64,000 bases of DNA from Promethearchaeota archaeon (GCA_048939595.1 JBHLPI010000001.1:16267-80266), one strand, 5' to 3'; positions 5,999-27,286 are shown, counted from the first letter of the stretch. Notes: generated by a model not told the origin, from the letters alone. Translations and numbers: made by a program.

Positions 5999-6586
5999 TC
6001 AGATCGCTTGGGAAATAGGCGATTCAGGTCTTGCAGTCGTAATCCGTAACCACATGAGATTCGCTATATTTTCAAAGACTTCAGAGACATTGAGACCTAT
6101 CTTAGAACTTGTTTCAAGATACCCGACGAGATTATTGAGTTTCGCATAGTCGTGAGCCATGTCACTGTTATTGTTTCCAACATCCCGTTTGGTGCCAACT
6201 AAGAGAATGGGTATATCATCTGTGTTGTTGCGAACCAGGTTGAGCCACTCATCAAGATGATAGAATGTTGGGGGACGAGCTAAGTCAAAGGCTAGGATAC
6301 AACCTAATGCACCTCGACAATAGCTGGGTAAGAGAAAACGGAAGCGCTCCTCACCCGCGAAATCCCATATGGTCAGAGTGACAAGGACACCTTCCATTTC
6401 AATATCTCGTGTCGCGAATCCGGAACCAACAGTCATTCGTTGATCCAGATAATTCCCTGTAAGGTAGCGGTGAATTAACGTGGTTTTTCCGACGCCCCCA
6501 TCCCCAACGACAATCATTTTCAAAACTGCTTTTCGGGGTAGGCTAGCGTCACCGGTTGATATCCATCCGACCGGACTTGGTTGCAC
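5999..6586 (-). CDS. Ras-superfamily small GTPase (Rab/Ras-like; Asgard-type eukaryotic signature protein)
   Basis: G1 GDGGVGKTTL, G3 WDFAGEE and G4 TKRD, all in canonical spacing. There is a roughly 25-aa N-terminal leader before G1 and no C-terminal prenylation cysteine. Confidence 0.85.
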   Translation of the reverse strand: MQPSPVGWISTGDASLPRKAVLKMIVVGDGGVGKTTLIHRYLTGNYLDQRMTVGSGFATRDIEMEGVLVTLTIWDFAGEERFRFLLPSYCRGALGCILAFDLARPPTFYHLDEWLNLVRNNTDDIPILLVGTKRDVGNNNSDMAHDYAKLNNLVGYLETSSKIGLNVSEVFENIANLMWLRITTARPESPISQAI

Positions 6587-7574: not shown

Positions 7575-7637
7575 TTTCTCATAGACAGACCGAGCATATT
7601 AAAGCTTGAAGAATTGACAACTTAGTGGGAAATATAC

Positions 7638-8444: not shown

Positions 8445-8491
8445 CCACTATTCCAGCCAGTAAAAAGTCTCTACAACAAAAACGCAGCCAA

Positions 8492-9271
8492 GTGATTGAA
8501 CACCTTAAGGAATTAAGGAGTGTATTAGTGGCTTTGTCAGGTGGCGTAGATAGTGCAGTTATGGCAGCACTTGCCTATGAAGCATTGCAAGATAAAGCAG
8601 TTGCAGCGACTTTCGATTCACCCTTGATGATACCCGAAGAAGTTGAAGATGCACGACAAGTGGCGAAAACCATTGGAATTCGCCATCATGTGCAAACCTT
8701 GAATGAATTGGAAAAGGCGTCCATTGTTCCAAATCCCGTTGATCGCTGTTACCATTGCAAACTCCTTCGATTCCGTGAAGCTCAGGTCCTAGCAGTCAAA
8801 CTAGGATTAAATGTGGTCGTTGATGGTACCACGGCAAGTGATCTCGGTGAACACCGACCGGGACTGAAAGCAATACGTGAATTGGGAATCATTAGCCCCC
8901 TACTTGATGCAGGCATTACTAAAACGGAATCCCGACAGCTTGCAAGGGAGTTAGCACTCCTTGTAGCTAATAAGCCATCGAATAGTTGTCTAGCTACACG
9001 AATACCGTATGGTGAAACCCTCACAGAGGAACGACTTGCACGGATTGCAGCAGCTGAAAAAGCGATTCGGGAAATAGCAGATGTGGGTTTCATTCGAGTC
9101 CGTGATCATGGGCATTTAGCCCGGATTGAGGTTCCATCCGATAAAATCCAGATACTTCTTCGAAAACCAATATCAGACCAGATTATCAAGCAATTAAAAG
9201 CCTTTGGTTACGAGTTCGTTACGATCGATTTGAAAGGTTACCGTTTCGGGAGTTTTGACGAACCATCATAA
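8492..9271 (+). CDS. larE: LarE-type ATP-dependent sulfur transferase (PP-loop ATP pyrophosphatase)
   Basis: PP-loop SGGVDSAV and a conserved Cys in SNSCLATRIPYGE, where LarE carries its sacrificial cysteine. Confidence 0.8.
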   Translation: MIEHLKELRSVLVALSGGVDSAVMAALAYEALQDKAVAATFDSPLMIPEEVEDARQVAKTIGIRHHVQTLNELEKASIVPNPVDRCYHCKLLRFREAQVLAVKLGLNVVVDGTTASDLGEHRPGLKAIRELGIISPLLDAGITKTESRQLARELALLVANKPSNSCLATRIPYGETLTEERLARIAAAEKAIREIADVGFIRVRDHGHLARIEVPSDKIQILLRKPISDQIIKQLKAFGYEFVTIDLKGYRFGSFDEPS

Positions 9272-9837: not shown

Positions 9838-11166
9838 ATGCAAAAGCCCAAGGTTGGACTTATCACACTCTCACTTGCCCGGGAACGAATAGACATTGCT
9901 GAACAAGCCCATAAAGAACTGAAAGCCGCGTTGAAAAAACAGCCCCTTGAAATAATTCCTTATGATGAACTGGTCTTAACGATGGAAGATTCAGTCCGGA
10001 TCTCCGAAGACATGGTGCATGACCATATTCAGTGTATCATCTATAATATCGGCTCCTGGGTGTACGCGCCCATGGTTGTTTCTGCTGTTCAAGCTACAGG
10101 ATTACCAAGCATCGTGTATGGATATCGGAGCCCTGTAGCATTCAGTCTCGTTGGTGCGGCGATTACACATGGCAGTCTTGATGAATTGGATCTTCTGCAT
10201 CGGTTTGTCTATGGAGAACCCGATTCGCCAGATGTGTTGGATGCAATTACCAGTTATTGCCGAGCCGCGATGACCTTTGATAATCTCAGTCGTAGCAAAG
10301 CCGTTGTCATTGGTGGAAAAACCATGGGAATGGTGACCTCTGCAGTAGACTTTAGCCAGGTGAAAGATATCTTCGGTACAGAGATTGAACATGTTGATAT
10401 GCTGCGATTATATCTGGATGCCCAGAAAATACCTGAGAAGCAAGTAAAAGAGAAAATGGCCTGGGCAAAGAAGACTTACGGGTCAATCAATGTCTCTGAC
10501 GAGATTCTTGAGAAAAGTGTTCGTTTGTATTTCGCTATGAAAGAGATGATGCAGACAGAGGGGTATGCTTTTGGTGGTTTCAAATGTCAGCCTGAATTCA
10601 TTGACAATTATGTCAGTGGTTGTATGCCTATCTCCTGGCTAATTAATGAAGGCATCATGATGTCTTGCGAAGCCGATATGAACGCAGCATTCACAATGCG
10701 AATTCTCCATTTATTAAGTGGACAGCCAGTGCTCTTCGCTGATGTCAATGATTTGGATATGAATACAGGCACACTACGGTTAGTTAATTGTGGGACAATC
10801 GCGACGGATATGGCTATTTCGCCCAAAGATGTTGATTGGAATCCACAGTACGAATATATGGGCAAAGCCAGCGGAGCCTGTCCAACCTTTAGTTGCAAAG
10901 AAGGATACGTCACCTTAGCAAGACTGGCGCGAGTAGGTGGTGAGTATGTGATGCAAATCGCAAACGGTGAAGCTGTTGTTCAAGACAAAGAAACCTTTAA
11001 GGAAGCACGCGATCGCTGGCCACATGCCTTTATTCACCTAGAAGGTGATCCTGACCTCTTCGTCCAGCATTTGCGATCAAATCATTTACACATGGTGTAT
11101 GGCGATGTGGTAAATGAGCTATATGATCTATGCGAGATTTTAGGAATTGAACCAATTTACACTTAG
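9838..11166 (+). CDS. L-arabinose/L-fucose isomerase-family-like sugar isomerase (putative)
   Basis: Architecture and local motifs resemble AraA/FucI: N-terminal KVGLITLS, central MSCEADMNAAFTMRIL, and a C-terminal His-rich HAFIHLEG...NHLHMVYGD. Judged by eye only. Confidence 0.45.
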   Translation: MQKPKVGLITLSLARERIDIAEQAHKELKAALKKQPLEIIPYDELVLTMEDSVRISEDMVHDHIQCIIYNIGSWVYAPMVVSAVQATGLPSIVYGYRSPVAFSLVGAAITHGSLDELDLLHRFVYGEPDSPDVLDAITSYCRAAMTFDNLSRSKAVVIGGKTMGMVTSAVDFSQVKDIFGTEIEHVDMLRLYLDAQKIPEKQVKEKMAWAKKTYGSINVSDEILEKSVRLYFAMKEMMQTEGYAFGGFKCQPEFIDNYVSGCMPISWLINEGIMMSCEADMNAAFTMRILHLLSGQPVLFADVNDLDMNTGTLRLVNCGTIATDMAISPKDVDWNPQYEYMGKASGACPTFSCKEGYVTLARLARVGGEYVMQIANGEAVVQDKETFKEARDRWPHAFIHLEGDPDLFVQHLRSNHLHMVYGDVVNELYDLCEILGIEPIYT

Positions 11167-12224
11167 CTTGCTAGCATCTTGATTTGGGCCTGTTTATGAA
11201 GGCGACGAGAAAACAGACTTGTAAAAAGAAAGCTGATAACTCCAGTAATTAAAGCAGTTAGTAGAATTATCTGGGGTGAGAGAATTGAGCTTAGACCCAG
11301 ATAGAGGTATGCGAGCGATAGCGTGATACCTGTTAGAAGATGATTGAGGATTGTTGATACATTAGCAGGTATCATTGCTAGAGGTTGGTCAAAGAATCTA
11401 AGAGTGTAAAGCCCGCCAATGAAGCTCAGAGGAATGGTTGACAAGACGAGGAATGAATACCAGGATGTAATATTGAAAAGAACAGCAAAGACAACAACAA
11501 GGTAAATCAACAGCAAAAGGGCAACATAAAGAATGGCGGCATGATGTCGGCCCAAGCGAACAACAAGGGTATATTTTCCAGAGTCTCGATCAGCTTTGAA
11601 ATCAGCGAATTCGTTGATATAGAGGATCGCTGATACAAGGAAAGCGACAGGCAGTGCCATAATTACCGGTTCCCAAGAAAAAAGTTGGGTTTGAGTATAA
11701 AAGGCTCCTAGTGTGAGGAAGATTCCAAAGCAAATACCAATGACTATCTCACCTATTCCACGGCTAACGAATTTAATAGGCGGGGCCGTGTAGAAAAACC
11801 CAAAAAACACACCGAGAATACCTAATATCAACACAAGAAGACCACGTGTGATGGTTAGGTAGAGACCAATCACAGCGCCACTGCTAAACAACATAATTGA
11901 TCCAGCAAGGACTGCTCGAGGAGAAAGGAGAGTTTTTTGAATCATTCGGCTTCCACCAGTGAATGGCCTGATATATTCGACATTGATATTATCAGATCCT
12001 TGTCGAAAATCCCAGTAATCGTTAGCTACATTTGCCCCCAGATGTATGAATACACCACCAATGAGGGTGAGTAGGAACACGTCCCAAAGGAAGATGCCTG
12101 TGGTTCCCCAAGCAATCGCGGTTCCAAGAAGTATTGGGACGATCGAGGCTGTCACGAATGGGAGACGAAGTTCTTCTAGCCATATTTTGGCTTTACTCGG
12201 ATTTTCCTTTAGATCTTCAGACAT
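11163..12224 (-). CDS. UbiA-family prenyltransferase, probably digeranylgeranylglyceryl phosphate synthase
   Basis: Asp-rich motifs NDYWDFRQGSD and FADFKADRDSG in a polytopic membrane protein. It lies in an operon with GGPP synthase and geranylgeranyl reductase. Confidence 0.7.
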   Translation of the reverse strand: MSEDLKENPSKAKIWLEELRLPFVTASIVPILLGTAIAWGTTGIFLWDVFLLTLIGGVFIHLGANVANDYWDFRQGSDNINVEYIRPFTGGSRMIQKTLLSPRAVLAGSIMLFSSGAVIGLYLTITRGLLVLILGILGVFFGFFYTAPPIKFVSRGIGEIVIGICFGIFLTLGAFYTQTQLFSWEPVIMALPVAFLVSAILYINEFADFKADRDSGKYTLVVRLGRHHAAILYVALLLLIYLVVVFAVLFNITSWYSFLVLSTIPLSFIGGLYTLRFFDQPLAMIPANVSTILNHLLTGITLSLAYLYLGLSSILSPQIILLTALITGVISFLFTSLFSRRLHKQAQIKMLAS

Positions 12225-12255
12225 ATTTTATGCCCCTAATTGTGATTGTTAAGAA

Positions 12256-13314
12256 TTAAAAATCGCGTTGAATAGTAAAATCAGCAAGTTGTTCGAGAAC
12301 CGTCTGGTTGAGGAATTTGTGTTCTTTAAGGCATCCTTTAGCACATTCTACATAGCTTTGTGCTAGCTGCATAGTATATGAATAAGCATTGTTTTGATCA
12401 ATCAATGCGAGAACTGTATCCCATTGATGCTTTTCAAGTGCTTGAAGACAAATATTTCGATTATTTGCTGAACAGTTTTCGAGTGTATAAAGAAGTGGAT
12501 AGTTTCCACGTTTCATTCGAAAATCAGAGAACACAGATTTGTTCAGTTCATTCTGTGGAGCTTGAATATCGAGTACATCATCTCTGAGTTGAAACGAGAA
12601 TCCAATATAGGAACCAAATTGAGCTAAAGCCTCACGCTCCTCTTGAGTGGCTTGACCAACGATAGCCCCAGTGCGTGCAGCTTCCTCAAGAAACACAGCA
12701 GTTTTTCGCTCAATCATTTTTAGATATTCTTTTGTTGTGAAAACGGCTTCTTGCTCAGGGGTGATGAAAAGATCAAGAACTTCGCCCTCACACATACGAA
12801 CACCGCCAGCGCCAATATTTGCCATGAGTTCTGGAGAACCATGCGTACCAATAATTCTTAAAGCCTGGGCAATAAGGAAGTCTCCCGCCAGAAGTGCAAC
12901 GTCATGACCATATTTCTTATGGACCGTTGGAACGCCTCTACGCATATCATCTTTATCGATGATATCATCATGGATAAGACTCGCAGTTTGGAGAAGCTCA
13001 GCAGCAACAGTAATTGGAAGGACTTTTTCAATTGATCCACCAACAGCCTCACATGCAAGGAGGGTCACTAGAGACCTAAGCCGTTTGCCTCCTGCAACAA
13101 TGAGATGATGCGCAGCATTATACAGAACTGGTGGTTCTCCTTTTTGCTGTTGAAGATAATCTAATACAGCTGAATTGATGAGCACAATTCGTGTTCTGAT
13201 ATGTTCACTTTCTAGGTATGATGCAGGCTTACTTTTTGCTGAACTCATATTTGAAGCTGAAATAGGAGACATTGGTTGATGGTTATCAGCTGGTATTGAA
13301 TCACGATTAGGCAT
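12256..13314 (-). CDS. idsA: Polyprenyl (geranylgeranyl) diphosphate synthase
   Basis: First Asp-rich motif LIHDDIIDKDD and second Asp-rich motif FQLRDDVLD. The N-terminal 30-40 aa may be over-called. Confidence 0.85.
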   Translation of the reverse strand: MPNRDSIPADNHQPMSPISASNMSSAKSKPASYLESEHIRTRIVLINSAVLDYLQQQKGEPPVLYNAAHHLIVAGGKRLRSLVTLLACEAVGGSIEKVLPITVAAELLQTASLIHDDIIDKDDMRRGVPTVHKKYGHDVALLAGDFLIAQALRIIGTHGSPELMANIGAGGVRMCEGEVLDLFITPEQEAVFTTKEYLKMIERKTAVFLEEAARTGAIVGQATQEEREALAQFGSYIGFSFQLRDDVLDIQAPQNELNKSVFSDFRMKRGNYPLLYTLENCSANNRNICLQALEKHQWDTVLALIDQNNAYSYTMQLAQSYVECAKGCLKEHKFLNQTVLEQLADFTIQRDF

Positions 13315-13463
13315 TCACTGAAAACTCCTTTGTAATCGATTCCTATTATCGATTGGTGTTATTTGAAAGTACGTTTTAGATATTGAATGTAAACAATACA
13401 TACTAAAGAAGATATGGAACAACTTATGATGAGGTTTGGCAAATCTAGTTTTGCAGACAATCA

Positions 13464-14663
13464 TTACGATATCAACGCCAATATCTTCACAAGTGTTCGT
13501 GAGGCTAGCTTGACTGGGAAAGGAAGCCGACAACGAATTAGGTGCCGTAAGTATCGGGGACCAGCTAGCCGCATGCAACGATTCATTAAGGTATCTGAAG
13601 TCATTATAAGATCTGAAATCCGCAGAATTTCCAAAGCGGATTTTAGCTCCTGTCCGAATTCCTTTTTCCAAGCTTCCTCGTACCAGCTTAAAGGCTGGTT
13701 TTCCTGAAGATGTTGAGCAGCTGCAATCCCGGCCAGTTCTCCTCCACCCAGGGCAGTAGGAATTCCCCCTCCATTTGAAGCCATAACATGTCCAGCAGCA
13801 TCACCAACCAAGAGAACTGAATTTGAAAAAGTTCGAGATACAGGTCCACCAACGGGTACAATTGCACCAGTTCTTCGAATGATTTTCCCATTTTTCATTC
13901 GATCGGCGTTAGTTGGATGTGAAGTAATGAAACGACGAAGATAGGAAAGAGCTGTCTGAGAATTTGTTTTGAATGATTGTCGGAAGCCGAGCCCAATATT
14001 TGCTGTTGATTCATCTTTAGGGATGACCCAAGCATAACCACCAGGAGCAATTTGATTGCCAAAATACATCTCAGTTGTATTTGAATCACATTCAATATCC
14101 GATAGAACAAATTGAATTGTGGGAGACAAATCGCGAATCCTATTTGAATAGTGTACACCAATTGATCGTGCTATACGTGAATGTGTGCCATCAGCTCCGA
14201 TGACAATTTTTGCTTTAATCATTTGACGACCCATTTTATTTTTCACAAGTAGTTGATTTGCACTTGTTCGTTTTAGGACCGTTGTCTGTAATCGTATCTG
14301 GGCACCTGCAGCAATGGCTTGATTTGCGAGGTATTGATCAAACTTTGCGCGATCAATAATGTTGGATACTAGCCGGAATTCAAAAGTACGATTATTTGGT
14401 GAGGCAAGTAAAAGTCGCGAGCTTCGATTGGTAATTACCTCTGAGGGAGCATCTACGAGACGAGCAATACGAGGAGAATCTGGGAGAAGATTTTGCATTT
14501 CCTCAGGCACAGGAAGATATTCTCCACACTGCACAGGGACTCCTACACGTTTACGACTGTCAAATACAATGGTCTTTAGTCCAAGTTTAGCTGTAGTTTT
14601 TGCAGCTGTACAACCGGCAGGTCCTGCCCCCACTATCGCAACATCAAATGCGGATGCCGACAT
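13464..14663 (-). CDS. Geranylgeranyl reductase (FAD-dependent digeranylgeranylglycerophospholipid reductase)
   Basis: N-terminal FAD fold VAIVGAGPAGCTAAKTTAKLGLKTIVFD and a GGR-family layout of about 400 aa. Confidence 0.8.
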   Translation of the reverse strand: MSASAFDVAIVGAGPAGCTAAKTTAKLGLKTIVFDSRKRVGVPVQCGEYLPVPEEMQNLLPDSPRIARLVDAPSEVITNRSSRLLLASPNNRTFEFRLVSNIIDRAKFDQYLANQAIAAGAQIRLQTTVLKRTSANQLLVKNKMGRQMIKAKIVIGADGTHSRIARSIGVHYSNRIRDLSPTIQFVLSDIECDSNTTEMYFGNQIAPGGYAWVIPKDESTANIGLGFRQSFKTNSQTALSYLRRFITSHPTNADRMKNGKIIRRTGAIVPVGGPVSRTFSNSVLLVGDAAGHVMASNGGGIPTALGGGELAGIAAAQHLQENQPLSWYEEAWKKEFGQELKSALEILRISDLIMTSDTLMNRCMRLAGPRYLRHLIRCRLPFPVKLASRTLVKILALIS

Positions 14664-14771
14664 ATAGTTCAGTCCATATTACCTCTTATGGGAAAGAAGA
14701 ATACGCATATTTTCTACTTTAGGCTAGCGATATAATAGTTCATCAATTGAACGCGTTTTAGAGGATGACTA

Positions 14772-15989
14772 TTAGGTGGTTTCGATTGGTTCTTCATGGA
14801 AACAATCACGGGCATCTTCACCGAAGAACATGTCCATGAGCCATTCCATTGATCCTTTTACGGTACGCCAATACATCATCCCAAAGCCCTTCTTCATCAT
14901 CATATTGAAGCGTGAGGGTTGGACATCTTTTGCATTTCGACCATAGGCTGTGATTACGAAAAGGCCTTTCCCATATCCAACATCCATCGGGCAATGGGTG
15001 CGCCCTGTAAAGTGACAGAGTTCACCAGTCTTTTTGACATCAGCGATGATATTCTTCGCTACCACAACAGCTTCAAGGTGTGCAGTAACTCCTGATTTCG
15101 AGGTGGGTAAGTCTGCGACATCCCCTAAAGCGTAGACGCCTTGTTGATCTTTGACTAGCATGGTGTGTTTATCCACTGGAATCCAGCCTTCTTCATCGCC
15201 AATATTGGAATCAATGATTGCTTGTGGAGCCTTGTGCGGAGGAACAACAAACATCGCTTCAAAGTCTAGTTCTCCACCCTCCATTGAATAGAGGATCTTT
15301 TTCTTTGGATCAACTCGATCAATGTTGAAGAAAGGGTGAATTGTGATTCCTCGTTCTTTGAAGCGCTTCTCAACAGTCTTACTGATAGTTGCATCAGGAT
15401 AAGGGCGTGGCAGTGGTGTTACGAAATGAACTTCCACCTTATCTTTGAGTTTCTTCTTTTTCAAAAACTGCTCAACGAGAAATGCAGCCTCTACAGGCGA
15501 AGGAGGGCATTTGTGTGGGAGTGTACTTATTCCTACAACAATCTTTCCGCTCTTGATTCCATTGATACGCTCCCAGATTGCCCACGCATTTTCTTGAGTT
15601 GAATGGAAATCAAGATTCGCTTCATCAAACCCAGGAATTTCACCTCGGGCGATAGCGGCACCGGATGCAATAACTAGATCGTCATATTGGTAGATGTTGT
15701 TATTCGTTGTAGTGACCGTCTTCTTTTTGAAATCGATTATTGCAGCAGGATCAACATGAAAGTTGATACGCTTATGGAGTAGGTTATTTTCTTTACGTTC
15801 GAGCTTCTTTGGGCTCATGCCCTTGAAAGCAATATACAGAAAGTTCGGTTGGAAAAGATGCTTCCCATCTGCGTCTAAGAGTGTGATTTCAACCTCGCCT
15901 TTTTTAATTTCCTTTCCGAGCTCACGAGCCATCAGGTTAGCTGCAAGGGTACCTGCAGTACCACCACCAAGAACGAGAATTCGTCTCAT
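14772..15989 (-). CDS. FAD-dependent pyridine nucleotide-disulfide oxidoreductase, sulfide:quinone oxidoreductase (SQR)-like / NDH-2-like
   Basis: ILVLGGGTAGTLAAN FAD-binding N-terminus, a conserved Cys in PHKCPPSPVEAAF, and a second Cys-containing segment CHFTGRTHCP. Confidence 0.6.
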   Translation of the reverse strand: MRRILVLGGGTAGTLAANLMARELGKEIKKGEVEITLLDADGKHLFQPNFLYIAFKGMSPKKLERKENNLLHKRINFHVDPAAIIDFKKKTVTTTNNNIYQYDDLVIASGAAIARGEIPGFDEANLDFHSTQENAWAIWERINGIKSGKIVVGISTLPHKCPPSPVEAAFLVEQFLKKKKLKDKVEVHFVTPLPRPYPDATISKTVEKRFKERGITIHPFFNIDRVDPKKKILYSMEGGELDFEAMFVVPPHKAPQAIIDSNIGDEEGWIPVDKHTMLVKDQQGVYALGDVADLPTSKSGVTAHLEAVVVAKNIIADVKKTGELCHFTGRTHCPMDVGYGKGLFVITAYGRNAKDVQPSRFNMMMKKGFGMMYWRTVKGSMEWLMDMFFGEDARDCFHEEPIETT

Positions 15990-16002
15990 TATTCTATCCC
16001 AA

Positions 16003-16245
16003 CTAATGTTTTGCCGTGATTTTCACCAGTGCGCGGATGACACCATCGTTTTCCTCAACACTGATGAGTTCGTTGTTGGTTGCAGAAATCCAGCCTTTGA
16101 TATCCGGAGTAAAGCCAGGATCTGTTGCTAAAATTTCGAGAACGTCTCCATTCTGAGCTTTACGATAAGCCCGTGCCACTTCGGTAATTGGACCGGGGCA
16201 CGCCATACCGCGGCAGTCCACAATTGTTTTTGGTGTTTCAGCCAT
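16003..16245 (-). CDS. tusA: TusA-like sulfurtransferase (SirA/YedF/YeeD family)
   Basis: An 80-aa protein with the CPxP motif (CRGMACPGPI). Confidence 0.85.
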   Translation of the reverse strand: MAETPKTIVDCRGMACPGPITEVARAYRKAQNGDVLEILATDPGFTPDIKGWISATNNELISVEENDGVIRALVKITAKH

Positions 16246-16320
16246 GCTAACATCTCCGATTTTCAGTATTCATTATTCCTTGAGCATTTATTCCAGTATT
16301 CTTTGTTCTTTTGACAGTGA

Positions 16321-16749
16321 CTAAATGAATAGGGTGATATCTGCATCCTTTGCGAAGTTGAGGAATGCAGCAGCCCCAAGAACATCGTCGACTTCATCAA
16401 TCAAGTCTTCACGCTTAATGTTCATGACATCCATTGTCATCTGGCAAGCGTAAAGCTTAGCCCCTAGGTCTTTGGCATCACGAATCATTTCAGGAAGTGC
16501 TTTTGCTCCAGCCTTTTTCATTCGTCCCTTCATCATGCCAGTTCCTATTCGCATCAACCCACCTAGTTTGACGCTATCGGCTCCTCCCTTCTTTTTAAGA
16601 AGGTTCAGACCCGAGAAGGTGAAAAAGACGCTAACGTCCATATCCATGGAAGCGCCAGTCACACCAAGAATAAAGGGTGGGTAGGCCATGTCCATGGTGC
16701 TCTTTGAGACAATTATTGCCATACGTTTCTTACCATTTCTTTCAGTCAT
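16321..16749 (-). CDS. DsrE/DsrF-like family protein (sulfur relay / DsrE2-like)
   Basis: A DsrE-like roughly 140-aa core (RMAIIVSKST...KLYACQMTMDVM). Start placed at ATG 16749 (MTERNGKK), since the longer ORF runs into the promoter region. Confidence 0.55.
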   Translation of the reverse strand: MTERNGKKRMAIIVSKSTMDMAYPPFILGVTGASMDMDVSVFFTFSGLNLLKKKGGADSVKLGGLMRIGTGMMKGRMKKAGAKALPEMIRDAKDLGAKLYACQMTMDVMNIKREDLIDEVDDVLGAAAFLNFAKDADITLFI

Positions 16750-17021
16750 TTGATGCAACTCCGTGTTTCCATTAGTTGCGTATGTTAGAACATTCGACAA
16801 TTTGAATATGTTATACATAAAAGGTTTTCCTTTTTTACATACTCTAGATAAACACCTATGAAGAGTTGAAGAAATTGATTGAAAAGGCTTCTTTCTCAAA
16901 CAACCTAAAAGCCGATAGGTGTCCCATTCATCCGGTTTCCAAAAGCTTTTTGTATTAGAATATTTGAATACGTGCGAATAACAGATAGCACACCCTAAGC
17001 TATCTTGAGGACGGTTAGACA

Positions 17022-17387
17022 ATGCAACTGCTTGAATTTGGCCTTATCCTCATTTTCACAACTTTAATCTTTGCTTCATTTCTTGCATCCATTATCCTTT
17101 CAAAGCTTGTTAGCCCAAGAAACCCGTCAAAAGAGAAAACCAAAAGTTTTGAGTGTGGTGAGGAACCCAGCGGTGCAGGTCGTGGACAATTCGCATTTCG
17201 ATATTATCCGTATTTGTTGATGTTTTTAGTATTTGATGTTGCTGCGATGTTCCTTTTTGCTTGGGCAGGTGCATTCTCTTCATTAGGACTCGAGCTCCAT
17301 ATCACTGTTTTAGCATTTCTTTTGGTTGTACTACCTCCTGTTGCATATGCAGTAAATGCAGCAGGAAATGCGGAAAGGTGGAAATAG
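17022..17387 (+). CDS. nuoA: Complex I subunit A (NuoA/ND3-like)
   Basis: FECGEEPSG motif and three transmembrane helices. Confidence 0.85.
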
Positions 17388-17389
17388 CA

Positions 17390-17905
17390 ATGACGGGAAT
17401 GGGATCCGCGTTTGTTGGTTCACTTCGTAACGTTTTAAATCGCGTGGTCAACGTTAAGCCAATTCGATATTTTGTGAATTGGTCACGATTATATTCCTTA
17501 TGGCCCGTCCATTTAACCACAGCATGTTGTAGCGTAGAATTTGGAGCAACAATGGGTTCAGGATTTGATGCTGAACGACTCGGTCTTCTCCCCCTTGGTT
17601 CCTTACGGCAATGTGATCTTTTAATCATCGAGGGGACTGTGACAAAGAAAATGGCTGAGCGAGTCGTTCGCATTTACAACCAGATGGCTTCACCACGTTA
17701 CGTGATTGCAATGGGAGCGTGTGCAATTTCAGGTGGAGTCTTTCGCGATTCTTATAGCATAGTTCCTGGCGTTGACAAAATTCTTCCCGTGGATGTGTAT
17801 GTCCCCGGATGCCCTCCACGACCGGAGATGCTAATCGATGCCATTTTGGAACTTCAACAAAAAATCAGGGAATCGAAGGTGGCTTTAGTTGATGGTACAA
17901 AATGA
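17390..17905 (+). CDS. nuoB: Complex I subunit B (NuoB/PSST-like, with N2-type [4Fe-4S] ligands)
   Basis: [19 protein letters not shown] and [11 protein letters not shown], so all four Cys ligands are present. Start reassigned to ATG 17390. Confidence 0.85.
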
Positions 17906-18203
17906 TGTATTTGAATTACAGGCCGAGATCTGCAAAGTATTGGCAAACCCCAAACGAATTCGAATTATCCATGTACTGAAAGACGGAGATAAGTCCGTTA
18001 CGGAAATTTCCAAAGCACTTGGGATTAGCCAATCGAACACCTCTCAACATCTTAGATTAATGAAATCCAAAGGTGTGCTCAAGTCAAGGCGGGATGGCCG
18101 AGAAATTTTTTACAGTATTGCTGTGCCGGAGCTCTCTCTTGCTTGTGAATTCGTTGGGCGTGCTTTAGAAAAAATCGTTGGTATTCCGCGAGCAACAAAA
18201 TAG
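17889..18203 (+). CDS. ArsR/SmtB-family winged-helix transcriptional regulator, embedded between nuoB and nuoC
   Basis: HTH segment [29 protein letters not shown]. It overlaps the nuoB 3' end on the same strand. Confidence 0.75.
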
Positions 18204-18216
18204 CAGGTGAACGAAT

Positions 18217-18684
18217 TTGTCCAAGTATCTTAAAGACTTGAAATCAGCCTTTCACGAAACAGACCTGGAAATCATCGAGAGACATTCTAAACAGCCAGTT
18301 CTTCGGGTTCCCAGTGATCAATTAGTTCCAATCGCTCAATATCTGAAGGAGAATACGGGGTTTGATCATGCTGTATCAGTTTCTGTGATTGATGATTTGG
18401 CGAATAACCAGTTTCTCATCGCCTATCACCTCGCCTCTGTTAAAAAACCAGAGTTGCATGGCGTCGTCTTCACATTGGAAGTTGTGAGTCCTCGAGGAAC
18501 TCCCTCCACCCCCTCACTTACAGCAATCTGGCCAAGCGTTGAATTTCATGAACGGGAGGGTTGGGAGATGTTTGGAATTAAGTTTGAGGGGCATCCGAAA
18601 CTGGAACGCCTCCTTCTACCAGAAAGTTGGGAGGGAGGTTATCCACTTCGTAAGGATTTCAAGCAAAAGGAGGAGGCAAAATGA
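18217..18684 (+). CDS. nuoC: Complex I subunit C (NuoC, 30 kDa)
   Basis: EREGWEMFGIKFEGHPKLERLLL signature. Confidence 0.85.
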   Translation: MSKYLKDLKSAFHETDLEIIERHSKQPVLRVPSDQLVPIAQYLKENTGFDHAVSVSVIDDLANNQFLIAYHLASVKKPELHGVVFTLEVVSPRGTPSTPSLTAIWPSVEFHEREGWEMFGIKFEGHPKLERLLLPESWEGGYPLRKDFKQKEEAK

Positions 18685-19760
18685 CAGAAATAGAGTATAG
18701 CATGGGCCCTCAGCATGCTGGCACAGGTCATATGCGAATGAAAGTTCGCTTATCTGGAGACCGGGTTATTCAAGCATTACCTGATCCGGGTTACGTGCAT
18801 CGCGGTGCTGAAAAACTCTGCGAGTTAAAAGAATTCTTTTGGAATATTCCACTTCTTGAACGTGTTTGTCTTCCGGATACAACTCCAGCTGCTTGGGGAT
18901 ATGTTCTCGCTGTAGAACGGCTTATGGGACTAGTACCTACAGAACCAGCCCGCTATATCCGAGCCCTGTTTGCAGAAATGAATCGCATTGTGAGCCACCT
19001 ATATTGGCTAGCAATTTTTGGAATCTTTCTGGGTCACTCAACGATGTTCATGTGGCCCTTTGCTGAACGTGAACCCTTCATTGAACTTGCTGAAGCAATA
19101 TCGGGTTCAAGGCTTACTCATAGCGACATCTATCCGACCGGGGTTCGACAAGCCCTTCCAGACAACTTTGCCCCAAGGATGAAAAAAGTAATTAAGCATT
19201 TCCAAAAGCGCCTTGTCGATTATGAACGAATTTTTTTCACTACAGCCATTTTCAAACAGCGAACAAAAGAAATTGGTATCCTCACGAAGGAAGATGCCAT
19301 CCGACTAGGTACAACCGGACCAGTTCTACGTGGTTCTGGGGTGAATTACGATATACGGAAGATCGATCCCTATGGACCATATCCCAAATTAGATTTCGAG
19401 CCTGTTGTTAGGGATGAAGGCGATAGTTATTCCCGGGCAATGGTCCGATTAGAGGAAATGCGAGTAAGTGCAGCCTTAATTGAACAAATCTTAGATCAGA
19501 TTCCTCCGGGGGAAGTCCGTCTAAAAACCCCGAAAAAGGTTCCCGCGGGGGTAGCTTATACCCGGGTTGAATCCGCACGTGGAGAGTTAGGATATCTGGT
19601 TGTAAGCCATGGTGAGAAACAGCCTAGCCGAGTGAAAGTAAGTACACCATGCTTCCGACATCTTCCAGCTCTTGAGTTCCTCCTCAAGAATATTGACCTC
19701 GCAGACATTCCGAGTATCTATTGGAGTCTCGATTATTGGCCACCAAATGCGGACAGGTAG
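18681..19760 (+). CDS. nuoD: Complex I subunit D (NuoD, 49 kDa-like); not a [NiFe] hydrogenase large subunit
   Basis: MGPQHAGTGHMRM N-terminus. The N- and C-terminal CxxC NiFe-binding motifs are absent. ATGA overlap with nuoC. Confidence 0.8.
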   Translation: MTEIEYSMGPQHAGTGHMRMKVRLSGDRVIQALPDPGYVHRGAEKLCELKEFFWNIPLLERVCLPDTTPAAWGYVLAVERLMGLVPTEPARYIRALFAEMNRIVSHLYWLAIFGIFLGHSTMFMWPFAEREPFIELAEAISGSRLTHSDIYPTGVRQALPDNFAPRMKKVIKHFQKRLVDYERIFFTTAIFKQRTKEIGILTKEDAIRLGTTGPVLRGSGVNYDIRKIDPYGPYPKLDFEPVVRDEGDSYSRAMVRLEEMRVSAALIEQILDQIPPGEVRLKTPKKVPAGVAYTRVESARGELGYLVVSHGEKQPSRVKVSTPCFRHLPALEFLLKNIDLADIPSIYWSLDYWPPNADR

Positions 19761-19766
19761 TGATGA

Positions 19767-20816
19767 ATGTTGCAGATTCTCGAAACGATTAACATCTTAA
19801 TTCAGCAAATGATTACCTTTGTTTTAACAAACTTAACGACAATATTCCTCCTCACTGTGTTTCCTGGATTTCTCACCATCGTCCTTGCAGCTGCAGCAAT
19901 TATTTGGTTTGAACGAAAATTCCTTGCGAAAATGCAGTTACGTGTTGGTCCCCAATACGCAGGGCGTATCGGAGGAATCTTACAACCCGTCGCGGATTTC
20001 TTGAAGCTTATCTTCAAAGAAGGAATTGTCCCTAAACGTGCGGATAGTTTCTTTTATCAATTAGCACCAATTCTTATTGTCACCCTAGCAGCAGTCACCG
20101 CCACTGTAATTCCCGTCGGACCCACTGCCGTCATCGCCAATCTTGAATATGGATTATTATTCATTTTTGCTGCTGGTGCACTTTTTCCCGTTCTTGCTTT
20201 CTTAACTGCATGGGCGAGTAACAGTGCTTATCCGTTTCTGGGTGGTCTTCGTGCGCTTCTTCAGATGATGGCATATGAAGTACCTTTATGGCTGTCAGCG
20301 GTGGGTGTTGTTATTCTGGCTGGATCATTCAATCTCACAGCTATCGTATTGGCCCAAAATTGGCTTTGGTTTGCAATCCTCATGCCTTTAGGAGCGGTAG
20401 TCTTTTTCACCGCAATGCTTGTTGAGCTTGAACGCATTCCCTTCGATTTACCAGAAGCAGAACCAGAAATTGTGACAGGATACATGAGCGAATACTCGGG
20501 TATGAACTTTGGCTTAATGATGATGTCACAGTATCTGAAACTCTACCTTGGAGCCCTACTTTTCACTACCCTTTTCTTAGGTGGGTGGCTAATGCCACCA
20601 TTCATCACTACGATACTTCCCTTTATTCCGCCCTTCATATGGACCCTTCTCAAAACTGCTTTTGTGATTGTCCTCTTTCTACTCCCACGAGGAATCTATC
20701 CCCGTGTTAAAATCTCGAAACTCCTTAAACTGGGTTGGAACCGCCTCTTCTTCATTGCTGTTGTAAACCTGGTCTTGGTAGTTGGAATTATGTTTGTTCT
20801 TGGAGGTGTTCCCTAG
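19767..20816 (+). CDS. nuoH: Complex I subunit H (NuoH/ND1)
   Basis: FERKFLAKMQLRVGPQYAG...GILQPVADFLKLIFKE signature. Confidence 0.85.
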   Translation: MLQILETINILIQQMITFVLTNLTTIFLLTVFPGFLTIVLAAAAIIWFERKFLAKMQLRVGPQYAGRIGGILQPVADFLKLIFKEGIVPKRADSFFYQLAPILIVTLAAVTATVIPVGPTAVIANLEYGLLFIFAAGALFPVLAFLTAWASNSAYPFLGGLRALLQMMAYEVPLWLSAVGVVILAGSFNLTAIVLAQNWLWFAILMPLGAVVFFTAMLVELERIPFDLPEAEPEIVTGYMSEYSGMNFGLMMMSQYLKLYLGALLFTTLFLGGWLMPPFITTILPFIPPFIWTLLKTAFVIVLFLLPRGIYPRVKISKLLKLGWNRLFFIAVVNLVLVVGIMFVLGGVP

Positions 20817-21244
20817 TGCCGATCAAAGCGTCCTGGGCTGGACTAAAACAGATATTCAAACGTCGAGTCACCATTAAATACCCAAGTCAAGAATTAGAAC
20901 TGACAAAACGTGAACGTGGTCGCCACGTCTTTTACTTCGACCGATGTATTAGTTGTTCCTTATGCGCTCGGAGCTGCCCAACCTATGCGATTACTATGAT
21001 TGATTACCCAGGGAAAGAGAAGCCGAAGAGACACCCACAAATAGATTATGGTTTATGTATTTTCTGTGGGTATTGTGTCGATGCCTGTCCAAAGGATGCA
21101 CTAGTGCATTCTCGCTATTTTCATTTAGCAAACCGAGAAACTGCTCCGCTGGTTTTCAGTCCTGATCAGTTAGCAGAGATTCCCGAAGGAGAAGACCATC
21201 TTCTCCCATCTAATGAAGAATCTGAAAAGGAGGAAGACCAATGA
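20816..21244 (+). CDS. nuoI: Complex I subunit I (NuoI, 2x[4Fe-4S] ferredoxin-type)
   Basis: CISCSLCARSCP and CIFCGYCVDACP motifs. The GTG start overlaps the nuoH stop (TAGTG). Confidence 0.8.
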   Translation: MPIKASWAGLKQIFKRRVTIKYPSQELELTKRERGRHVFYFDRCISCSLCARSCPTYAITMIDYPGKEKPKRHPQIDYGLCIFCGYCVDACPKDALVHSRYFHLANRETAPLVFSPDQLAEIPEGEDHLLPSNEESEKEEDQ

Positions 21245-21759
21245 TTGATCCATTCTTCTTGCCAGATCTAGCGCTAATCGTAATTGGAGTTCTAACCATC
21301 GCGGCTGCTATAGCAGCCCTTGAGTCAAGAGAGATTGTTTACGGGGCAATTTCATTGGCTGGGATGTTCTTGGGTATTGCAGGGCTGTTCATCTTATTGG
21401 ACGCTTCATATGCAGCGATGTTTCAAATATCTGTGTATATTGGCGCTGTGGTCGTTCTGATCTTCTTTACCATTATGGTCGTTCCCTACGAACATTGGCG
21501 ATATCGGCTCAAACGACCGCGACGGGAATGGATTATTCCCCTGGTTATCAACGCACTCCTATTCAGTGTACTTCTCTACATCTTCTATTCACCCGCAATT
21601 GTTGAAGCCTTGCCAGACCCGGCATTTGGTTGGAACATAACAGATCTTGCCTTAGCTCTTCTGGAGGATTATGGTGTGGCACTATTGATTCTCGGGATCG
21701 TTCTTGCTTCAGCGCTCATAGGAGCCCTAACTTTGATAAAAAAGGAGGATGAAACCTAA
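21241..21759 (+). CDS. nuoJ: Complex I subunit J (NuoJ/ND6)
   Basis: Hydrophobic protein in the syntenic position, with a Gly-rich TM1. Confidence 0.7.
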   Translation: MIDPFFLPDLALIVIGVLTIAAAIAALESREIVYGAISLAGMFLGIAGLFILLDASYAAMFQISVYIGAVVVLIFFTIMVVPYEHWRYRLKRPRREWIIPLVINALLFSVLLYIFYSPAIVEALPDPAFGWNITDLALALLEDYGVALLILGIVLASALIGALTLIKKEDET

Positions 21760-22079
21760 TGGCGACGTTGGTCGTGTATCTGGTAATTGTAGGCTTCCTT
21801 GCGGCGATTGGGCTCTATGGATTGACTAGTAAGCGGAATGTCATGCGATTATTCTTTAGTATTGAAATCCTCATGAATGCAGCGAATTTGAGTTTCGTCG
21901 CTTTTGCCCGGTATGTACTATGGGGAGTTGCTGCGCTGGCTGTCATGGGCCATGCCATTGTGCTATTTGCTATAGCCCTTGAAGCCGCGGAGGCTGCCAT
22001 TGCGCTGGCAATTATTCTCCTCGTCTCACGAGTGCGAGGTTCAGTTGACATTCGTGAGCTTCGTGATCTGGAGGGTTAA
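21759..22079 (+). CDS. nuoK: Complex I subunit K (NuoK/ND4L)
   Basis: FFSIEILMNAANLSFVAF signature in a roughly 100-aa protein. Confidence 0.85.
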   Translation: MATLVVYLVIVGFLAAIGLYGLTSKRNVMRLFFSIEILMNAANLSFVAFARYVLWGVAALAVMGHAIVLFAIALEAAEAAIALAIILLVSRVRGSVDIRELRDLEG

Positions 22080-22084
22080 CCACT

Positions 22085-23617
22085 TTGCAGACGGTCATCG
22101 ATACTATCATAATCTTCCTGCTAACTCATCCGCTAACTTTGGGCATGTTCCTTCCACTCCTCTTTGCAGGCGCAATCTATCTCTTTGCACGACACCGGGA
22201 ACGTACAGCACAATGGGTAAGTATAATTGCAATAGTTCTCTCTATGGGTCTGGTATTGTTACGTGGATTAGAGCTATTCCCCTTTTCGACGTCTTCACCG
22301 CCCTATGTCTTAGAAACGTTTCTCTGGATTCCAACCCTTAATATTACCCTGAGCTTCATGCTCGATGGGCTTAATTTCCCTATAATAATTATCACAGCAA
22401 TTATTACTGCCCTAATAATTTCCTTTAGTCGCTATTACTTTGAAAATGTGAAAAATAATGGTACTTACTTTGCGACGATTCTCCTGATGTATGTTGGAAT
22501 GCTTGGCGTGTTTGTCGCGGCAGATCTTTTCTTATTCTATTTGTTCTGGGAAATCACAATCATACCAGCATATGTTTTTGTCATCTATTGGCGAGAAACA
22601 GGAGTTTCCAAAGTAGAGGCCCAAAAGACTGGTATGAAATTCTTCCTTTGGACACATGTAGGTTCCCTTGTTATGCTAATGGGTCTGATCCTTGTCTTCA
22701 CGTTAACGGGAACCACTAGAATGGTTGACATTCCAGCCGCATTGGCAACGGTGCCAATCGAATTTATGCATATTTTGCAATTTGCTGCGGCTGCAATGAT
22801 ATTCGGATTCATCGTCAAACTTGGCATTTTTCCTTTCCATAGTTGGCTCCCAGATACTTATGTTCAGGCTTCATCACCTGTCACTGCTCTAATTGGGGGA
22901 CTTCTTGCCAATATCGGAGCCTACGGATTGATACGGATTACAGCAAGTTGGTTTCCATCGATTATTGTCGCATGGTCAGTTCCACTGGGTCTACTCGCTA
23001 TATCCTCTATAATCTATGGTGGATATCTTGCCATTGGTCAGAGTGAATTCAAGCGGCGATGGGCCTATTCAAGCGTGAGTCAAGGTGGATACATCCTTCT
23101 TGGCGTTGCATCAGTTTCGGTCCTTGGACTTGCAGGCGCAGCCTTCCATATTATCAATTCGGCGATTATCAAATCCGCCTTATTTCTTACTGCTGGAGCT
23201 TATCTCATGATTGTTCGAACAACGAATATTGATTCCCTTCGTGGTATAGGCACTAAGATGCCGATAACTGGTATTTCCTTCTTACTAGCAGCTTTTGCTA
23301 TGGCCGGAATACCTCCATTAAGCGGGTTTATCAGTGAAATCCTCATCTTCCTGGGAATCTTCACGGTTTCGAATGCATTGATTGTGGCATTAATAGGAGC
23401 CGGTGCAATTTTGGTCACTTTCACTTACGTGCTTGGGCCTATTTACAAGCTCTTTGTGTCACCACCTGAATCAAAACTTACCAACAAGAAGGATCCATCT
23501 CACTGGCAATCAATTCCATTCATCCTCATGACACTCCTTGTAGTTGTCATAGGAATTTGGCCTGACCTAGTTCTAACGCCAATTGGACACTGGGTACTCA
23601 ATCTAGGAGGACTCTAA
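22085..23617 (+). CDS. Additional NuoM/ND4-like (Mrp antiporter-like) membrane subunit, copy 1
   Basis: FYLFWEITIIPAYVFVIYWRETG and HSWLPD motifs of the NuoL/M/N-MrpA/D family. It lies between nuoK and nuoL. Confidence 0.75.
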   Translation: MQTVIDTIIIFLLTHPLTLGMFLPLLFAGAIYLFARHRERTAQWVSIIAIVLSMGLVLLRGLELFPFSTSSPPYVLETFLWIPTLNITLSFMLDGLNFPIIIITAIITALIISFSRYYFENVKNNGTYFATILLMYVGMLGVFVAADLFLFYLFWEITIIPAYVFVIYWRETGVSKVEAQKTGMKFFLWTHVGSLVMLMGLILVFTLTGTTRMVDIPAALATVPIEFMHILQFAAAAMIFGFIVKLGIFPFHSWLPDTYVQASSPVTALIGGLLANIGAYGLIRITASWFPSIIVAWSVPLGLLAISSIIYGGYLAIGQSEFKRRWAYSSVSQGGYILLGVASVSVLGLAGAAFHIINSAIIKSALFLTAGAYLMIVRTTNIDSLRGIGTKMPITGISFLLAAFAMAGIPPLSGFISEILIFLGIFTVSNALIVALIGAGAILVTFTYVLGPIYKLFVSPPESKLTNKKDPSHWQSIPFILMTLLVVVIGIWPDLVLTPIGHWVLNLGGL

Positions 23618-23619
23618 AA

Positions 23620-25245: not shown

Positions 25246-25246
25246 T

Positions 25247-27280: not shown

Positions 27281-27286
27281 GTCATT

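Follow-up and report, generated by a model that had tools for sequence, protein, structure and literature searches.

The window analyzed here, a stretch of 64,000 nucleotides from a Promethearchaeota archaeon (GCA_048939595.1, JBHLPI010000001.1:16267-80266), carries on its minus strand a cassette of three genes for a DsrE-family sulfur carrier, a TusA sulfur carrier and a sulfide:quinone oxidoreductase (SQR), probably of type III, and, divergently from it on the plus strand, an operon for a complex-I-like enzyme in which a gene for a two-cysteine repressor of the ArsR/SmtB family is embedded (Table 1). Open reading frames (ORFs) and Pfam matches place the cassette genes where an initial annotation, made from the sequence alone, had put an SQR-like flavoprotein, a TusA and a DsrE-like protein, and the promoter region of 270 bp which it had them share with nuoA measures 272 nt of non-coding DNA between the dsrE ATG (16749) and the nuoA ATG (17022). 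Its description of a sulfur-trafficking module divergent from a complex-I-like operon is likewise borne out, with catalytic cysteines present in all three proteins. The best matches of the window's proteins come from metagenome-assembled genomes (MAGs) of Promethearchaeota and Hermodarchaeota. For comparison, one genome per species was scanned for homologous loci, which yielded 80 genome loci (labeled L001 and so on) from Nitrososphaerota (including Conexivisphaerales and Caldarchaeales), Bathyarchaeia, Thermoplasmatota, Micrarchaeota and Asgard archaea.

The SQR cassette and its counterparts

The SQR opens with an FAD-binding GxGxxG motif ('VLGGGTAGT') within a Rossmann fold that begins at residue 3, and it matched the NCBIfam model for type III SQR with 9.8e-88 and 294.7 bits, the next family following at 61 bits. 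It stays under the cut-off of this model (525) because the model represents the selenocysteine (selenoprotein) subtype. Among solved structures human SQOR ranked first (1.9e-27), followed by flavocytochrome c sulfide dehydrogenase (FCSD, 1e-17) and then by bacterial and archaeal SQRs. Cys161 and Cys333 align with Cys201 and Cys379 of human SQOR; both are invariant in 16 diverse homologs (alignment A1, with one sequence from a Caldivirga sp.) and are found in 79/79 and 78/79 of the locus homologs, respectively. The protein is 37-38% identical to homologs from Caldivirga and Thermoproteus, and its homologs carry SQR annotations, including the one from a Caldivirga sp., a genus with a characterized type III enzyme (that of C. 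maquilingensis; Lencina 2013, as cited in PMC10205796). The initial annotation had left the choice between an SQR and an NDH-2 to be settled, and the flavoprotein groups with the SQRs. Membership in the same superfamily of flavoproteins with two dinucleotide-binding domains, together with weak matches to CoA-disulfide reductase (36.7 bits) and NDH-2 (E = 5e-4), might speak for an NDH-2 or a CoA-disulfide/persulfide reductase instead. However, the distance between the type III SQR score and those of all other families (at most 61 bits), the conservation of both SQR redox cysteines and the annotation of the homologs make such an identity extremely improbable. No signal peptide precedes the SQR, so its active site should face the cytoplasm, where TusA and DsrE are located. 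The four Asgard SQRs in alignment A1 have two further cysteines in common, Cys325, which precedes Cys333 by eight residues, and Cys396 within the C-terminal tail. Both are rare elsewhere (14/79 and 8/79 homologs, respectively) and may be additional persulfide-relay residues.

The active cysteine of TusA, Cys16, lies in a Cys-Pro-Gly-Pro motif ('MACPGP') that is kept in all 76 homologs, and against the equivalog model for E. coli TusA the protein reached 41.8, below the cut-off of 78. For dsrE, the ATG at 16749, with a conserved GGAG ahead of it, was taken as the start codon. A longer ORF of 233 aa (16321-17022) was rejected as the real gene, since it is an artefact of an upstream TTG, its N-terminal extension is not conserved and the homologs begin with MxE... 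or MAIIV; upstream of the ATG, conservation among three relatives shrinks to two short islands. The single cysteine of DsrE, Cys102 in 'LYACQMT', is present in 74/74 homologs, and in 2QS7, 3PNX and 3MC3 it is the active-site cysteine that aligns with it, which answers the question, raised by the initial annotation, of whether this residue is present.

The best solved relative of the DsrE protein is SSO1126 (1.4e-17), the DsrE2B protein of structure 2QS7 (PMC4175335; also a bioRxiv paper), and judged by sequence the protein is nearest to DsrE2B. Against the NCBIfam DsrE2 equivalog NF047629 it matched in two stretches and scored 115.1 bits, under the cut-off of 210. The Cys-X7-Cys motif by which DsrE3A is defined (PMC4175335) is absent, as there is only one cysteine and the residue eight positions past Cys102 is an Asn. 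SQR-linked DsrE proteins have previously been named DsrE4, with Mcup_1724, 'encoded downstream of SQR', as the prototype (PMC4175335). The window protein fits this DsrE4 group of Liu et al. (2014) by gene linkage; an assignment by sequence was dropped, the homologue search having returned only generic names. It resembles the DsrE4 and DsrE2B proteins (Mcup_0682; SSO1126, 2QS7) in being a soluble, SQR-linked member of the family with a single cysteine, but its gene lies upstream of those for TusA and SQR, whereas Mcup_1724 lies downstream of SQR.

The full trio was found in 75/80 loci (TusA in 78/80 and DsrE in 75/80) and always in the order DsrE-TusA-SQR, which is also that of a Caldivirga locus and a bacterial Meiothermus locus. 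The trio itself is ordinary and represents the standard genomic setting of type III SQR. In the cultured methanotroph Methylacidiphilum fumariolicum SolV, the operon MFUM_v2_0219-21, encoding a type III SQR, TusA and DsrE2, was upregulated in sulfide-adapted cells, and oxidation of H2S to elemental (zero-valent) sulfur with transfer of the electrons to quinone was proposed (PMC10205796). With the same operon described and sulfide-induced in that organism (PMC10205796) and with DsrE4 already named (PMC4175335), the module as a kind cannot be called poorly characterized, a description that the initial annotation had given of sulfur respiration in the lineage. Since the cassette is both widespread and published, it can be regarded as real, but not as new in kind. 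The likeness to the Methylacidiphilum operon comprises the same three gene families and probably the same SQR type; in contrast to it, the window cassette precedes genes for menaquinone prenylation, diverges from a complex-I-like operon, has a recognizable cognate ArsR and a predicted operator, and belongs to an Asgard archaeon whose window contains no evident terminal oxidase. For Asgard archaea, type III SQRs on their own were reported in Heimdallarchaeia MAGs (PMC11193907). A literature search found these and a model of TusA/DsrE-Hdr coupling in Nerearchaeum, but no description of an Asgard SQR-TusA-DsrE cassette.

The genetic surroundings of the cassette differ between lineages. A relative from the Asgardarchaeia has the full trio next to hypothetical genes, and Hermodarchaeota relatives show the order TusA-SQR-reductase-polyprenyl synthase-MenA without DsrE or nuo genes. 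In Candidatus Heimdallarchaeum aukensis (CP084166, 969824-982297), genes for TusA, an SQR-like flavoprotein (380 aa), TusA, two DsrE proteins, a TrmB/MarR-like regulator, TusA and an opposite-strand DsrE are directly followed by genes for FlpD and HdrA-like proteins, and this cluster does not contain any match to the ArsR operator matrix described below. In the window, the genes following SQR on the same strand encode a geranylgeranyl-reductase family protein, a polyprenyl diphosphate synthase and MenA. They are syntenic with SQR in L001, L006-L010, L088, L089 and L095, and the presence of these prenylation genes fits menaquinone as the presumed electron acceptor.

The probable shared control region and the embedded repressor

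A weight matrix for the operator, trained on other phyla only, was applied to 63,975 window positions. Only three positions scored above 12 bits, and two of them lie in the 272-nt intergenic region. The palindrome O1 gave the top score of the whole window (19.2 bits); L006, L088 and L089 have it unchanged, and in L007, L090 and L095 it is conserved. The palindrome O2 is the third-best position (14.0 bits) and an exact match to TATT-N10-AATA; it is conserved in L006, L007, L088 and L089 and homologous to the arsR promoter of L090. Together they occupy the only two islands of conservation between dsrE and nuoA (L006, L007, L088, L089), and each adjoins a AAAGCTTTT(A/T)TGTA element which resembles a B recognition element (BRE) plus TATA box, the BRE/TATA-like elements having been assigned by eye. 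The same two-site layout between nuoA and dsrE is found in L095, the SQR of which is 67% identical.

The motif is not restricted to the window. With at most one mismatch, ATTC-N8-GAAT occurs in 54/88 regions upstream of the first cassette gene, against an expectation of 0.099 per 240 nt, and the sites are typically located 36-66 nt ahead of the start codon. A de novo enumeration of all 4-mer palindromes, from which the window, L006 and L007 were excluded and in which the Asgard loci L003, L009 and L010 were included, ranked TATT-N10-AATA first (21/71 loci, 0 in controls) and ATAT-N12-ATAT second (20/71), and the two share the register ATATTC-N8-GAATAT. In other intergenic regions of the same loci 36 sites were counted in 90.8 kb, that is 0.046 per 115 nt, and due to this mere background frequency a general archaeal promoter element was rejected as an explanation of the palindrome. 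Sites were present in 40/52 loci with an adjacent ArsR gene versus 9/21 loci that lack it, which corresponds to an odds ratio of 4.4 (p = 0.012) in a set of loci that are not independent. The core is identical to ATTC-N8-GAAT, the deduced recognition site of the sulfide sensor SqrR (PMC9774250). With these features, the intergenic region between the two gene sets has the appearance of a genuine control region common to both. A scan of 11000-18300 with bacterial promoter and terminator models returned counts under the shuffle expectation; these models do not apply to archaea, so this result is uninformative.

The operon on the other side of this region encodes homologs of NuoA-D and NuoH-N, including a quinone-type NuoD, and thus the 11-subunit core of a Nuo-type complex I, without nuoEFG. 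Besides nuoA (Pfam Oxidored_q4, 7.9e-24) and NuoD (NF004739, 400.8 bits versus a cut-off of 360), NuoB (209.5 versus 116), C, L (527 versus 407), M (468 versus 264) and N all matched NCBIfam models. Its end (22085-30217) encodes five antiporter-like subunits in place of the usual three, with two extra NuoM-like genes (22085-23617 and 23620-25245) followed by NuoL (677 aa), NuoM and NuoN. The layout in L088 and L089 equals that of the window up to the end of the available sequence, which includes both NuoM-like genes and breaks off early in the gene for the 677-aa NuoL.

The arsR gene shares 14 nt with the end of nuoB, and its own end lies 13 nt ahead of nuoC. Homologs of its product (30-50% identity) are encoded directly beside the trio in 54/80 loci; in Nitrososphaerota and Caldarchaeales their genes lie downstream of SQR, whereas Bathyarchaeia have them upstream of DsrE. 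Of 53 non-identical sequences, all contain Cys86 and 42 contain Cys15, and several of the others have a different cysteine. An AlphaFold2 model (pLDDT 92.5) puts Cys15 into helix alpha-1 and Cys86 into alpha-5, the two helices that make up the dimer interface of ArsR/SmtB proteins. With the family profile, the best matches to solved structures were Rv0081 (3.9e-25), SqrR (9.5e-22) and BigR (2.2e-20). A Foldseek search with the model returned TM-scores of about 0.8 to SmtB and CzrA and of 0.70 to SqrR, with SmtB, CzrA and Rv0081 above SqrR; as these are generic ArsR/SmtB matches, the fold search did not separate SqrR-like from metal-sensing proteins and was discarded as a discriminator. Against the NCBIfam BigR model the protein scored 50.5 bits (cut-off 155).

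Among the closest known regulators are the persulfide-sensing ArsR-family repressors SqrR (Rhodobacter capsulatus), BigR (Xylella) and YgaV (E. coli), with which the window ArsR is compared from sequence. It shares with them the ArsR/SmtB fold, the linkage to sqr and two cysteines, one of them in alpha-5, and its recognition helix ('QxNxSQHL') is similar to that of SqrR ('QAAVSQQL'). The cysteines of SqrR (Cys41 in alpha-2 and Cys107 in alpha-5) are not found at the corresponding positions: since the alpha-2 cysteine of SqrR ('IMCYL') aligns with residue 28, a His, the pair is placed differently, with Cys15 in alpha-1 and Cys86 in the N-terminal part of alpha-5, and not in alpha-2 and the C-terminal part of alpha-5 as in SqrR and BigR. 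Being archaeal, the repressor would moreover act at a TATA/BRE promoter, unlike SqrR and BigR. No archaeal counterpart of SqrR or BigR was found described in the literature searched. Rv0081 of Mycobacterium tuberculosis, the best solved-structure match (2.5e-16; 3.9e-25 with the profile), has Phe and Leu at positions 15 and 86, and thus neither cysteine, and is not known to be linked to sulfide metabolism. It is encoded by the first gene of the formate-hydrogenlyase (complex-I-like) operon Rv0081-Rv0088 and is similar in being a regulator of the ArsR type whose gene is transcribed together with those of a complex-I-like membrane enzyme. In Thermococcales, SurR is a sulfur-responsive, cysteine-based winged-helix regulator that controls the Mbh and Mbs (Mbx) complexes, and it also represents an archaeal cysteine-based regulator of complex-I-related membrane complexes. 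SurR differs by its CxxC switch, its DNA motif and its hydrogenase and sulfane-reductase targets, whereas the target in the window is of the Nuo type, with a NuoD above its equivalog cut-off.

Some indication of how arsR and the nuo genes came together is given by the nearest ArsR relatives. L088 and L089 (ArsR 84% identical) have the order nuoA-nuoB-arsR-nuoC as in the window. L090 and L091 (77% identical) have no nuo or SQR genes, and arsR is divergent from a decayed dsrE: in L090 (7496-8309 of an Asgard MAG; L091 likewise), a DsrE fragment of 72 aa ending in 'MKKAGV' remains, TusA and SQR are missing and the ArsR gene is intact. Between arsR and the dsrE remnant of L090 the operator matrix finds a site of 20.9 bits. 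In L090, the promoter and start codon of arsR can be aligned, column by column, with those of nuoA in the window, including the BRE/TATA-like element, which aligns with GCGAAACCTTTTTGT upstream of L090 arsR; the nuoA promoter can therefore be considered homologous to an arsR promoter. Either nuoA-nuoB was inserted between the arsR promoter and arsR, or L090 lost nuoA-nuoB. Either way, nuoA, nuoB and arsR would stand behind an operator-bearing promoter in this Asgard clade, and probably the rest of the operon as well.

Two observations on the sequence around these sites may be added. The second-best matrix score of the window (14.8 bits; ATTAGGTTGTTCGAAT, 56716-56741) is located inside the ORF 56400-57344 on the minus strand, which encodes an SsuA-family sulfonate-binding protein (100 bits, below the cut-off); this may be a chance match or a real site in a sulfur-related gene. 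In addition, a 13-nt direct repeat brackets the intergenic region (ATGCAACTCCGTG and ATGCAACTGCTTG, 16753-16765 and 17022-17034). One copy is the reverse complement of the ribosome-binding and start region of dsrE and the other forms the first codons of nuoA, and the repeat could be due to chance or be the trace of a rearrangement.

Proposed function and alternative explanations

We consider it fairly probable that the locus holds a widespread type III SQR cassette for cytoplasmic sulfide oxidation and detoxification which, in this Asgard clade, is ArsR-controlled together with the complex-I-like operon. For the cassette as such, cytoplasmic sulfide oxidation and detoxification is most likely the function. 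By homology, a membrane-associated SQR would oxidize H2S at its Cys161/Cys333-FAD site and pass two electrons to menaquinone, and the resulting sulfane sulfur would be taken up as persulfide by Cys16 of TusA and Cys102 of DsrE, as suggested by the invariant cysteines and the strict synteny. Gene linkage, the conserved operator and the analogy to SqrR and BigR suggest that a dimeric ArsR-family repressor binds ATATTC-N8-GAATAT just downstream of the TATA box. There it would occlude both promoters and be released once sulfane sulfur modifies the Cys15/Cys86 pair, again by analogy to SqrR and BigR. In this particular Asgard clade, the gene for the repressor is located between nuoB and nuoC, with one predicted operator at each of the divergent promoters and a nuoA promoter that would derive from an ancestral arsR promoter.

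With arsR inside the nuo operon, both gene sets appear to share one control region. Since, in addition, the operator is found on both divergent promoters, sulfide or persulfide should derepress the SQR cassette, ArsR and the complex-I-like operon together, and co-induction of SQR and complex-I-like enzyme by sulfide is probably the outcome. The sense of it might possibly be reverse electron flow from sulfide-reduced quinol or, alternatively, autoregulation of the repressor with nuo as a passenger. It is this regulatory part, as far as it can be deduced, that would be new. Its most specific form is proposed tentatively and is less likely than not: an archaeal persulfide-sensing ArsR that would recognize the ATTC-N8-GAAT core of bacterial SqrR but sense through another cysteine pair (Cys15 in alpha-1 and Cys86 in alpha-5), and the promoter of which was captured in one Asgard clade to drive a 13-subunit complex-I-like operon that retains the regulator gene, so that sulfide would switch on SQR and complex I together.

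Several points weigh against the main explanation. The operator motif was first spotted in the window itself; 12/52 ArsR-linked loci do not contain a recognizable site, and 9/21 ArsR-less loci do. As the loci are phylogenetically related, locus counts and p-values overstate independence. The nuoA operator may matter only for the autoregulation of arsR, and with its cysteines off the SqrR/BigR positions the repressor could use them as a thiolate metal site or as a plain redox switch. The induction observed in Methylacidiphilum was only 1.7-fold (PMC10205796), and DsrE2B of M. cuprina, the closest biochemically studied relative of the DsrE protein, was inert with six sulfur compounds in vitro (PMC4175335). 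Finally, neither a quinol oxidase nor a terminal reductase is evident in the window, so that a joint induction of two quinone reducers is hard to account for in physiological terms.

Some of these points lead to a reading in which the cassette is an ordinary detoxification unit, its adjacency to nuo has no functional meaning, the nuoA operator serves the autoregulation of the embedded arsR only and complex I responds to other signals or to internal promoters. It is in line with the mobility of the trio, which moves without nuo: nuoA is near the cassette in only 2/80 loci (L006 and L007, the closest relatives of the window), the Hermodarchaeota and Asgardarchaeia relatives have TusA-SQR or the full trio next to carotenoid or hypothetical genes, and arsR exists without nuo in L090. 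Apart from the window, only its close Asgard relatives (L006, L007, L088/L089 and L095) were seen to have the cassette adjacent to nuo, and a conserved SQR-Nuo or SQR-Hdr unit beyond this clade was accordingly rejected (nuoA in 2/80, HdrD/DoxD in 0/80 loci). Among these relatives, however, the arrangement is kept at SQR identities of 67-90%, and the 14-nt overlap with nuoB and the 13 nt to nuoC leave no room for a separate arsR promoter; whatever represses the nuoA promoter must hence act on nuoA and nuoB too, and probably on the genes that follow. We thus regard an isolated detoxification unit as unlikely, although it is the most serious of the competing explanations. Considerably less probable is that ArsR senses a metal or general oxidative stress rather than sulfane sulfur and that its linkage to the cassette reflects another shared stress response. 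Thiolate pairs at the alpha-1/alpha-5 dimer interface of ArsR/SmtB proteins could bind soft metals, the cysteines are off the SqrR/BigR positions, and sequence profile (Rv0081) and fold search (SmtB, CzrA, Rv0081) rank other regulators above SqrR. Yet ArsR is found directly beside the SQR cassette in 54/80 loci across phyla, the predicted operator core is identical to that of SqrR, alpha-5, judged by the alignment, is devoid of the His/Asp/Glu ligands that CzrA and SmtB have in their alpha-5 metal site, and no genes for metal efflux or metal binding adjoin arsR.

The initial annotation had gone further: referring to TusA-DsrE2 modules that feed Hdr-like systems, it suggested that the cassette and the HdrD-like, cytochrome b and DoxX genes beyond the operon point to energy conservation linked to sulfur or polysulfide. 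In this reading TusA and DsrE would supply an Hdr-like system with sulfane sulfur and, with the products of these genes and the complex-I-like enzyme, make up a respiratory unit for sulfur or polysulfide. TusA/DsrE-Hdr coupling has indeed been proposed for another Asgard archaeon (bioRxiv 10.1101/2025.07.22.663070), and in Heimdallarchaeum aukensis genes for TusA, DsrE and the SQR-like protein adjoin FlpD/HdrA-like genes. In the window, the HdrD-like, QmoC/HdrE-like and DoxD genes are located just past nuoN, and L095 has an ortholog of DoxD (58% identity) inside its SQR-MenA row, which is a weak point in favor. On the other hand, none of the 80 related loci has an HdrD or DoxD gene closer than 6 kb to the cassette, and the trio travels alone through many phyla. 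The HdrD-like protein, a CCG protein of TfrB/HdrD type, is encoded at a distance of 13 kb on the strand opposite to nuo and in convergent orientation, and it scores best against the TfrB/GlpC type of CCG proteins (TfrB, 244 bits), with DsrK at 50 bits. [quoted passage not shown] Taken together, the absence of HdrD/DoxD from the 80 loci, the TfrB-like score and the lack of sHdr proteins among the scanned ORFs leave the Hdr/polysulfide-respiration reading unsupported. Moreover, the transfer of electrons from sulfide to menaquinone is the thermodynamically favored direction of SQR according to established redox potentials, so that the enzyme points to oxidation and not to sulfur respiration. Such a respiratory unit is therefore more improbable still than a metal or stress sensor; of the initial interpretation, the sulfur-trafficking module and the probable shared control region are supported, while the respiratory unit is not.

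Should sulfide-responsive control of cassette and complex-I-like operon be confirmed, the co-switching could allow electrons to flow in reverse, driven by the proton motive force, from menaquinone reduced by sulfide to a carrier of low potential. In that case, relatives of the eukaryotic ancestor would have a lithotrophic use of sulfide that is subject to regulation. The repressor would be a candidate archaeal sulfide or persulfide sensor with a defined predicted operator and two defined cysteines, and the operon would give an example of regulatory rewiring in which a whole respiratory complex comes to lie behind a predicted sulfide-responsive promoter in an Asgard lineage. A menaquinone-centered gene neighborhood in an archaeon whose group is mostly regarded as fermentative may also bear on hydrogen-sulfur syntrophy scenarios for eukaryogenesis.

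The wider gene neighborhood

The coordinates of the cassette, the control region, the operon and the surrounding genes are compiled in Table 1.

Table 1. Genes and predicted regulatory elements in the window, with positions counted from its first nucleotide.
Feature	Position	Strand	Details
DsrE-family sulfur-carrier gene (dsrE)	16321-16749	-	142 aa, soluble; Pfam DrsE_2 9e-42, 143.1 bits (cut-off 25); Pfam DsrE 6.8e-11
TusA sulfur-carrier gene	16003-16245	-	80 aa; Pfam TusA 2e-21, 76.1 bits (cut-off 28.6)
SQR gene, probably type III	14772-15989	-	405 aa; Pfam Pyr_redox_2 2.5e-21, 76.8 bits, residues 3-298
Operator-like palindrome O1, ATTCGACAATTTGAAT	16792-16807		Center 50 nt upstream of the dsrE ATG; follows closely on the downstream side of the BRE/TATA-like element
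BRE/TATA-like element, predicted dsrE promoter, GGAAAACCTTTTATGTA	16814-16830	-	Conserved footprint island across four relatives
BRE/TATA-like element, predicted nuoA promoter, CCAAAAGCTTTTTGT	16937-16953	+	Conserved island
Operator-like palindrome O2, ATTAGAATATTTGAAT	16954-16969		Center 60 nt upstream of the nuoA ATG; with flanks GTATTA-N8-GAATAC
Complex-I-like operon	17022-30217	+	nuoA, nuoB, arsR, nuoC, D, H, I, J, K and five antiporter-like subunits
Two-cysteine ArsR/SmtB-family repressor gene (arsR)	17892-18203	+	103-104 aa; NCBIfam HTH_metalloreg 86.8 bits (cut-off 55); HTH_5 3.2e-13
Geranylgeranyl-reductase family gene, probable prenyl side-chain reductase	13464-14663	-	108 nt after SQR; TIGR02032 229.6 bits (cut-off 158.8)
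Polyprenyl diphosphate synthase gene	12256-13314	-	Pfam polyprenyl_synt 1.7e-63
MenA-type 1,4-dihydroxy-2-naphthoate polyprenyltransferase gene (menaquinone)	11163-12224	-	TIGR00751 menA 124.8 bits (cut-off 102)
TfrB/HdrD-like protein gene	30236-31651	-	Two CCG domains; convergent with nuo; TfrB 244 bits, DsrK 50 bits
QmoC/HdrE-like membrane protein gene	31581-32306		Convergent with nuo; no Pfam match
DoxD gene	32481-33179		Convergent with the nuo end
Gene for a 250-aa protein	33330-34082		Adjoins DoxD; no Pfam or NCBIfam match; by eye, N-terminal winged-helix-like segment and Cys/His-rich C-terminus
FixC-type electron-transfer-flavoprotein:quinone oxidoreductase gene	34373-35701		407 bits
LarB, LarC and LarE genes (nickel-pincer cofactor biosynthesis; LarE is a sacrificial sulfur transferase)	6783-9271		All above NCBIfam cut-offs

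From about 11 to 36 kb the window shows a quinone-centered neighborhood comprising MenA, SQR, Nuo, HdrD/cytochrome b, DoxD and FixC. Past the nuo operon, the HdrD-like, QmoC/HdrE-like and DoxD genes together look like a quinol-interacting module; in L095 the DoxD ortholog is located between the reductase and the polyprenyl synthase. The 250-aa protein encoded next to DoxD may be a further sensor-regulator. As for the assignment of the window to an Asgard archaeon, two Ras-family small GTPases (5999-6586 and 38631-39182) and a TackOD1-domain protein (37717-38616) represent Asgard signatures, and they are accompanied by a type III RuBisCO (50383-51615; 529.5 bits versus a cut-off of 497). At the other side of the cassette, the Pfam families of the Lar proteins recur beside the MenA end of the cluster in L001.

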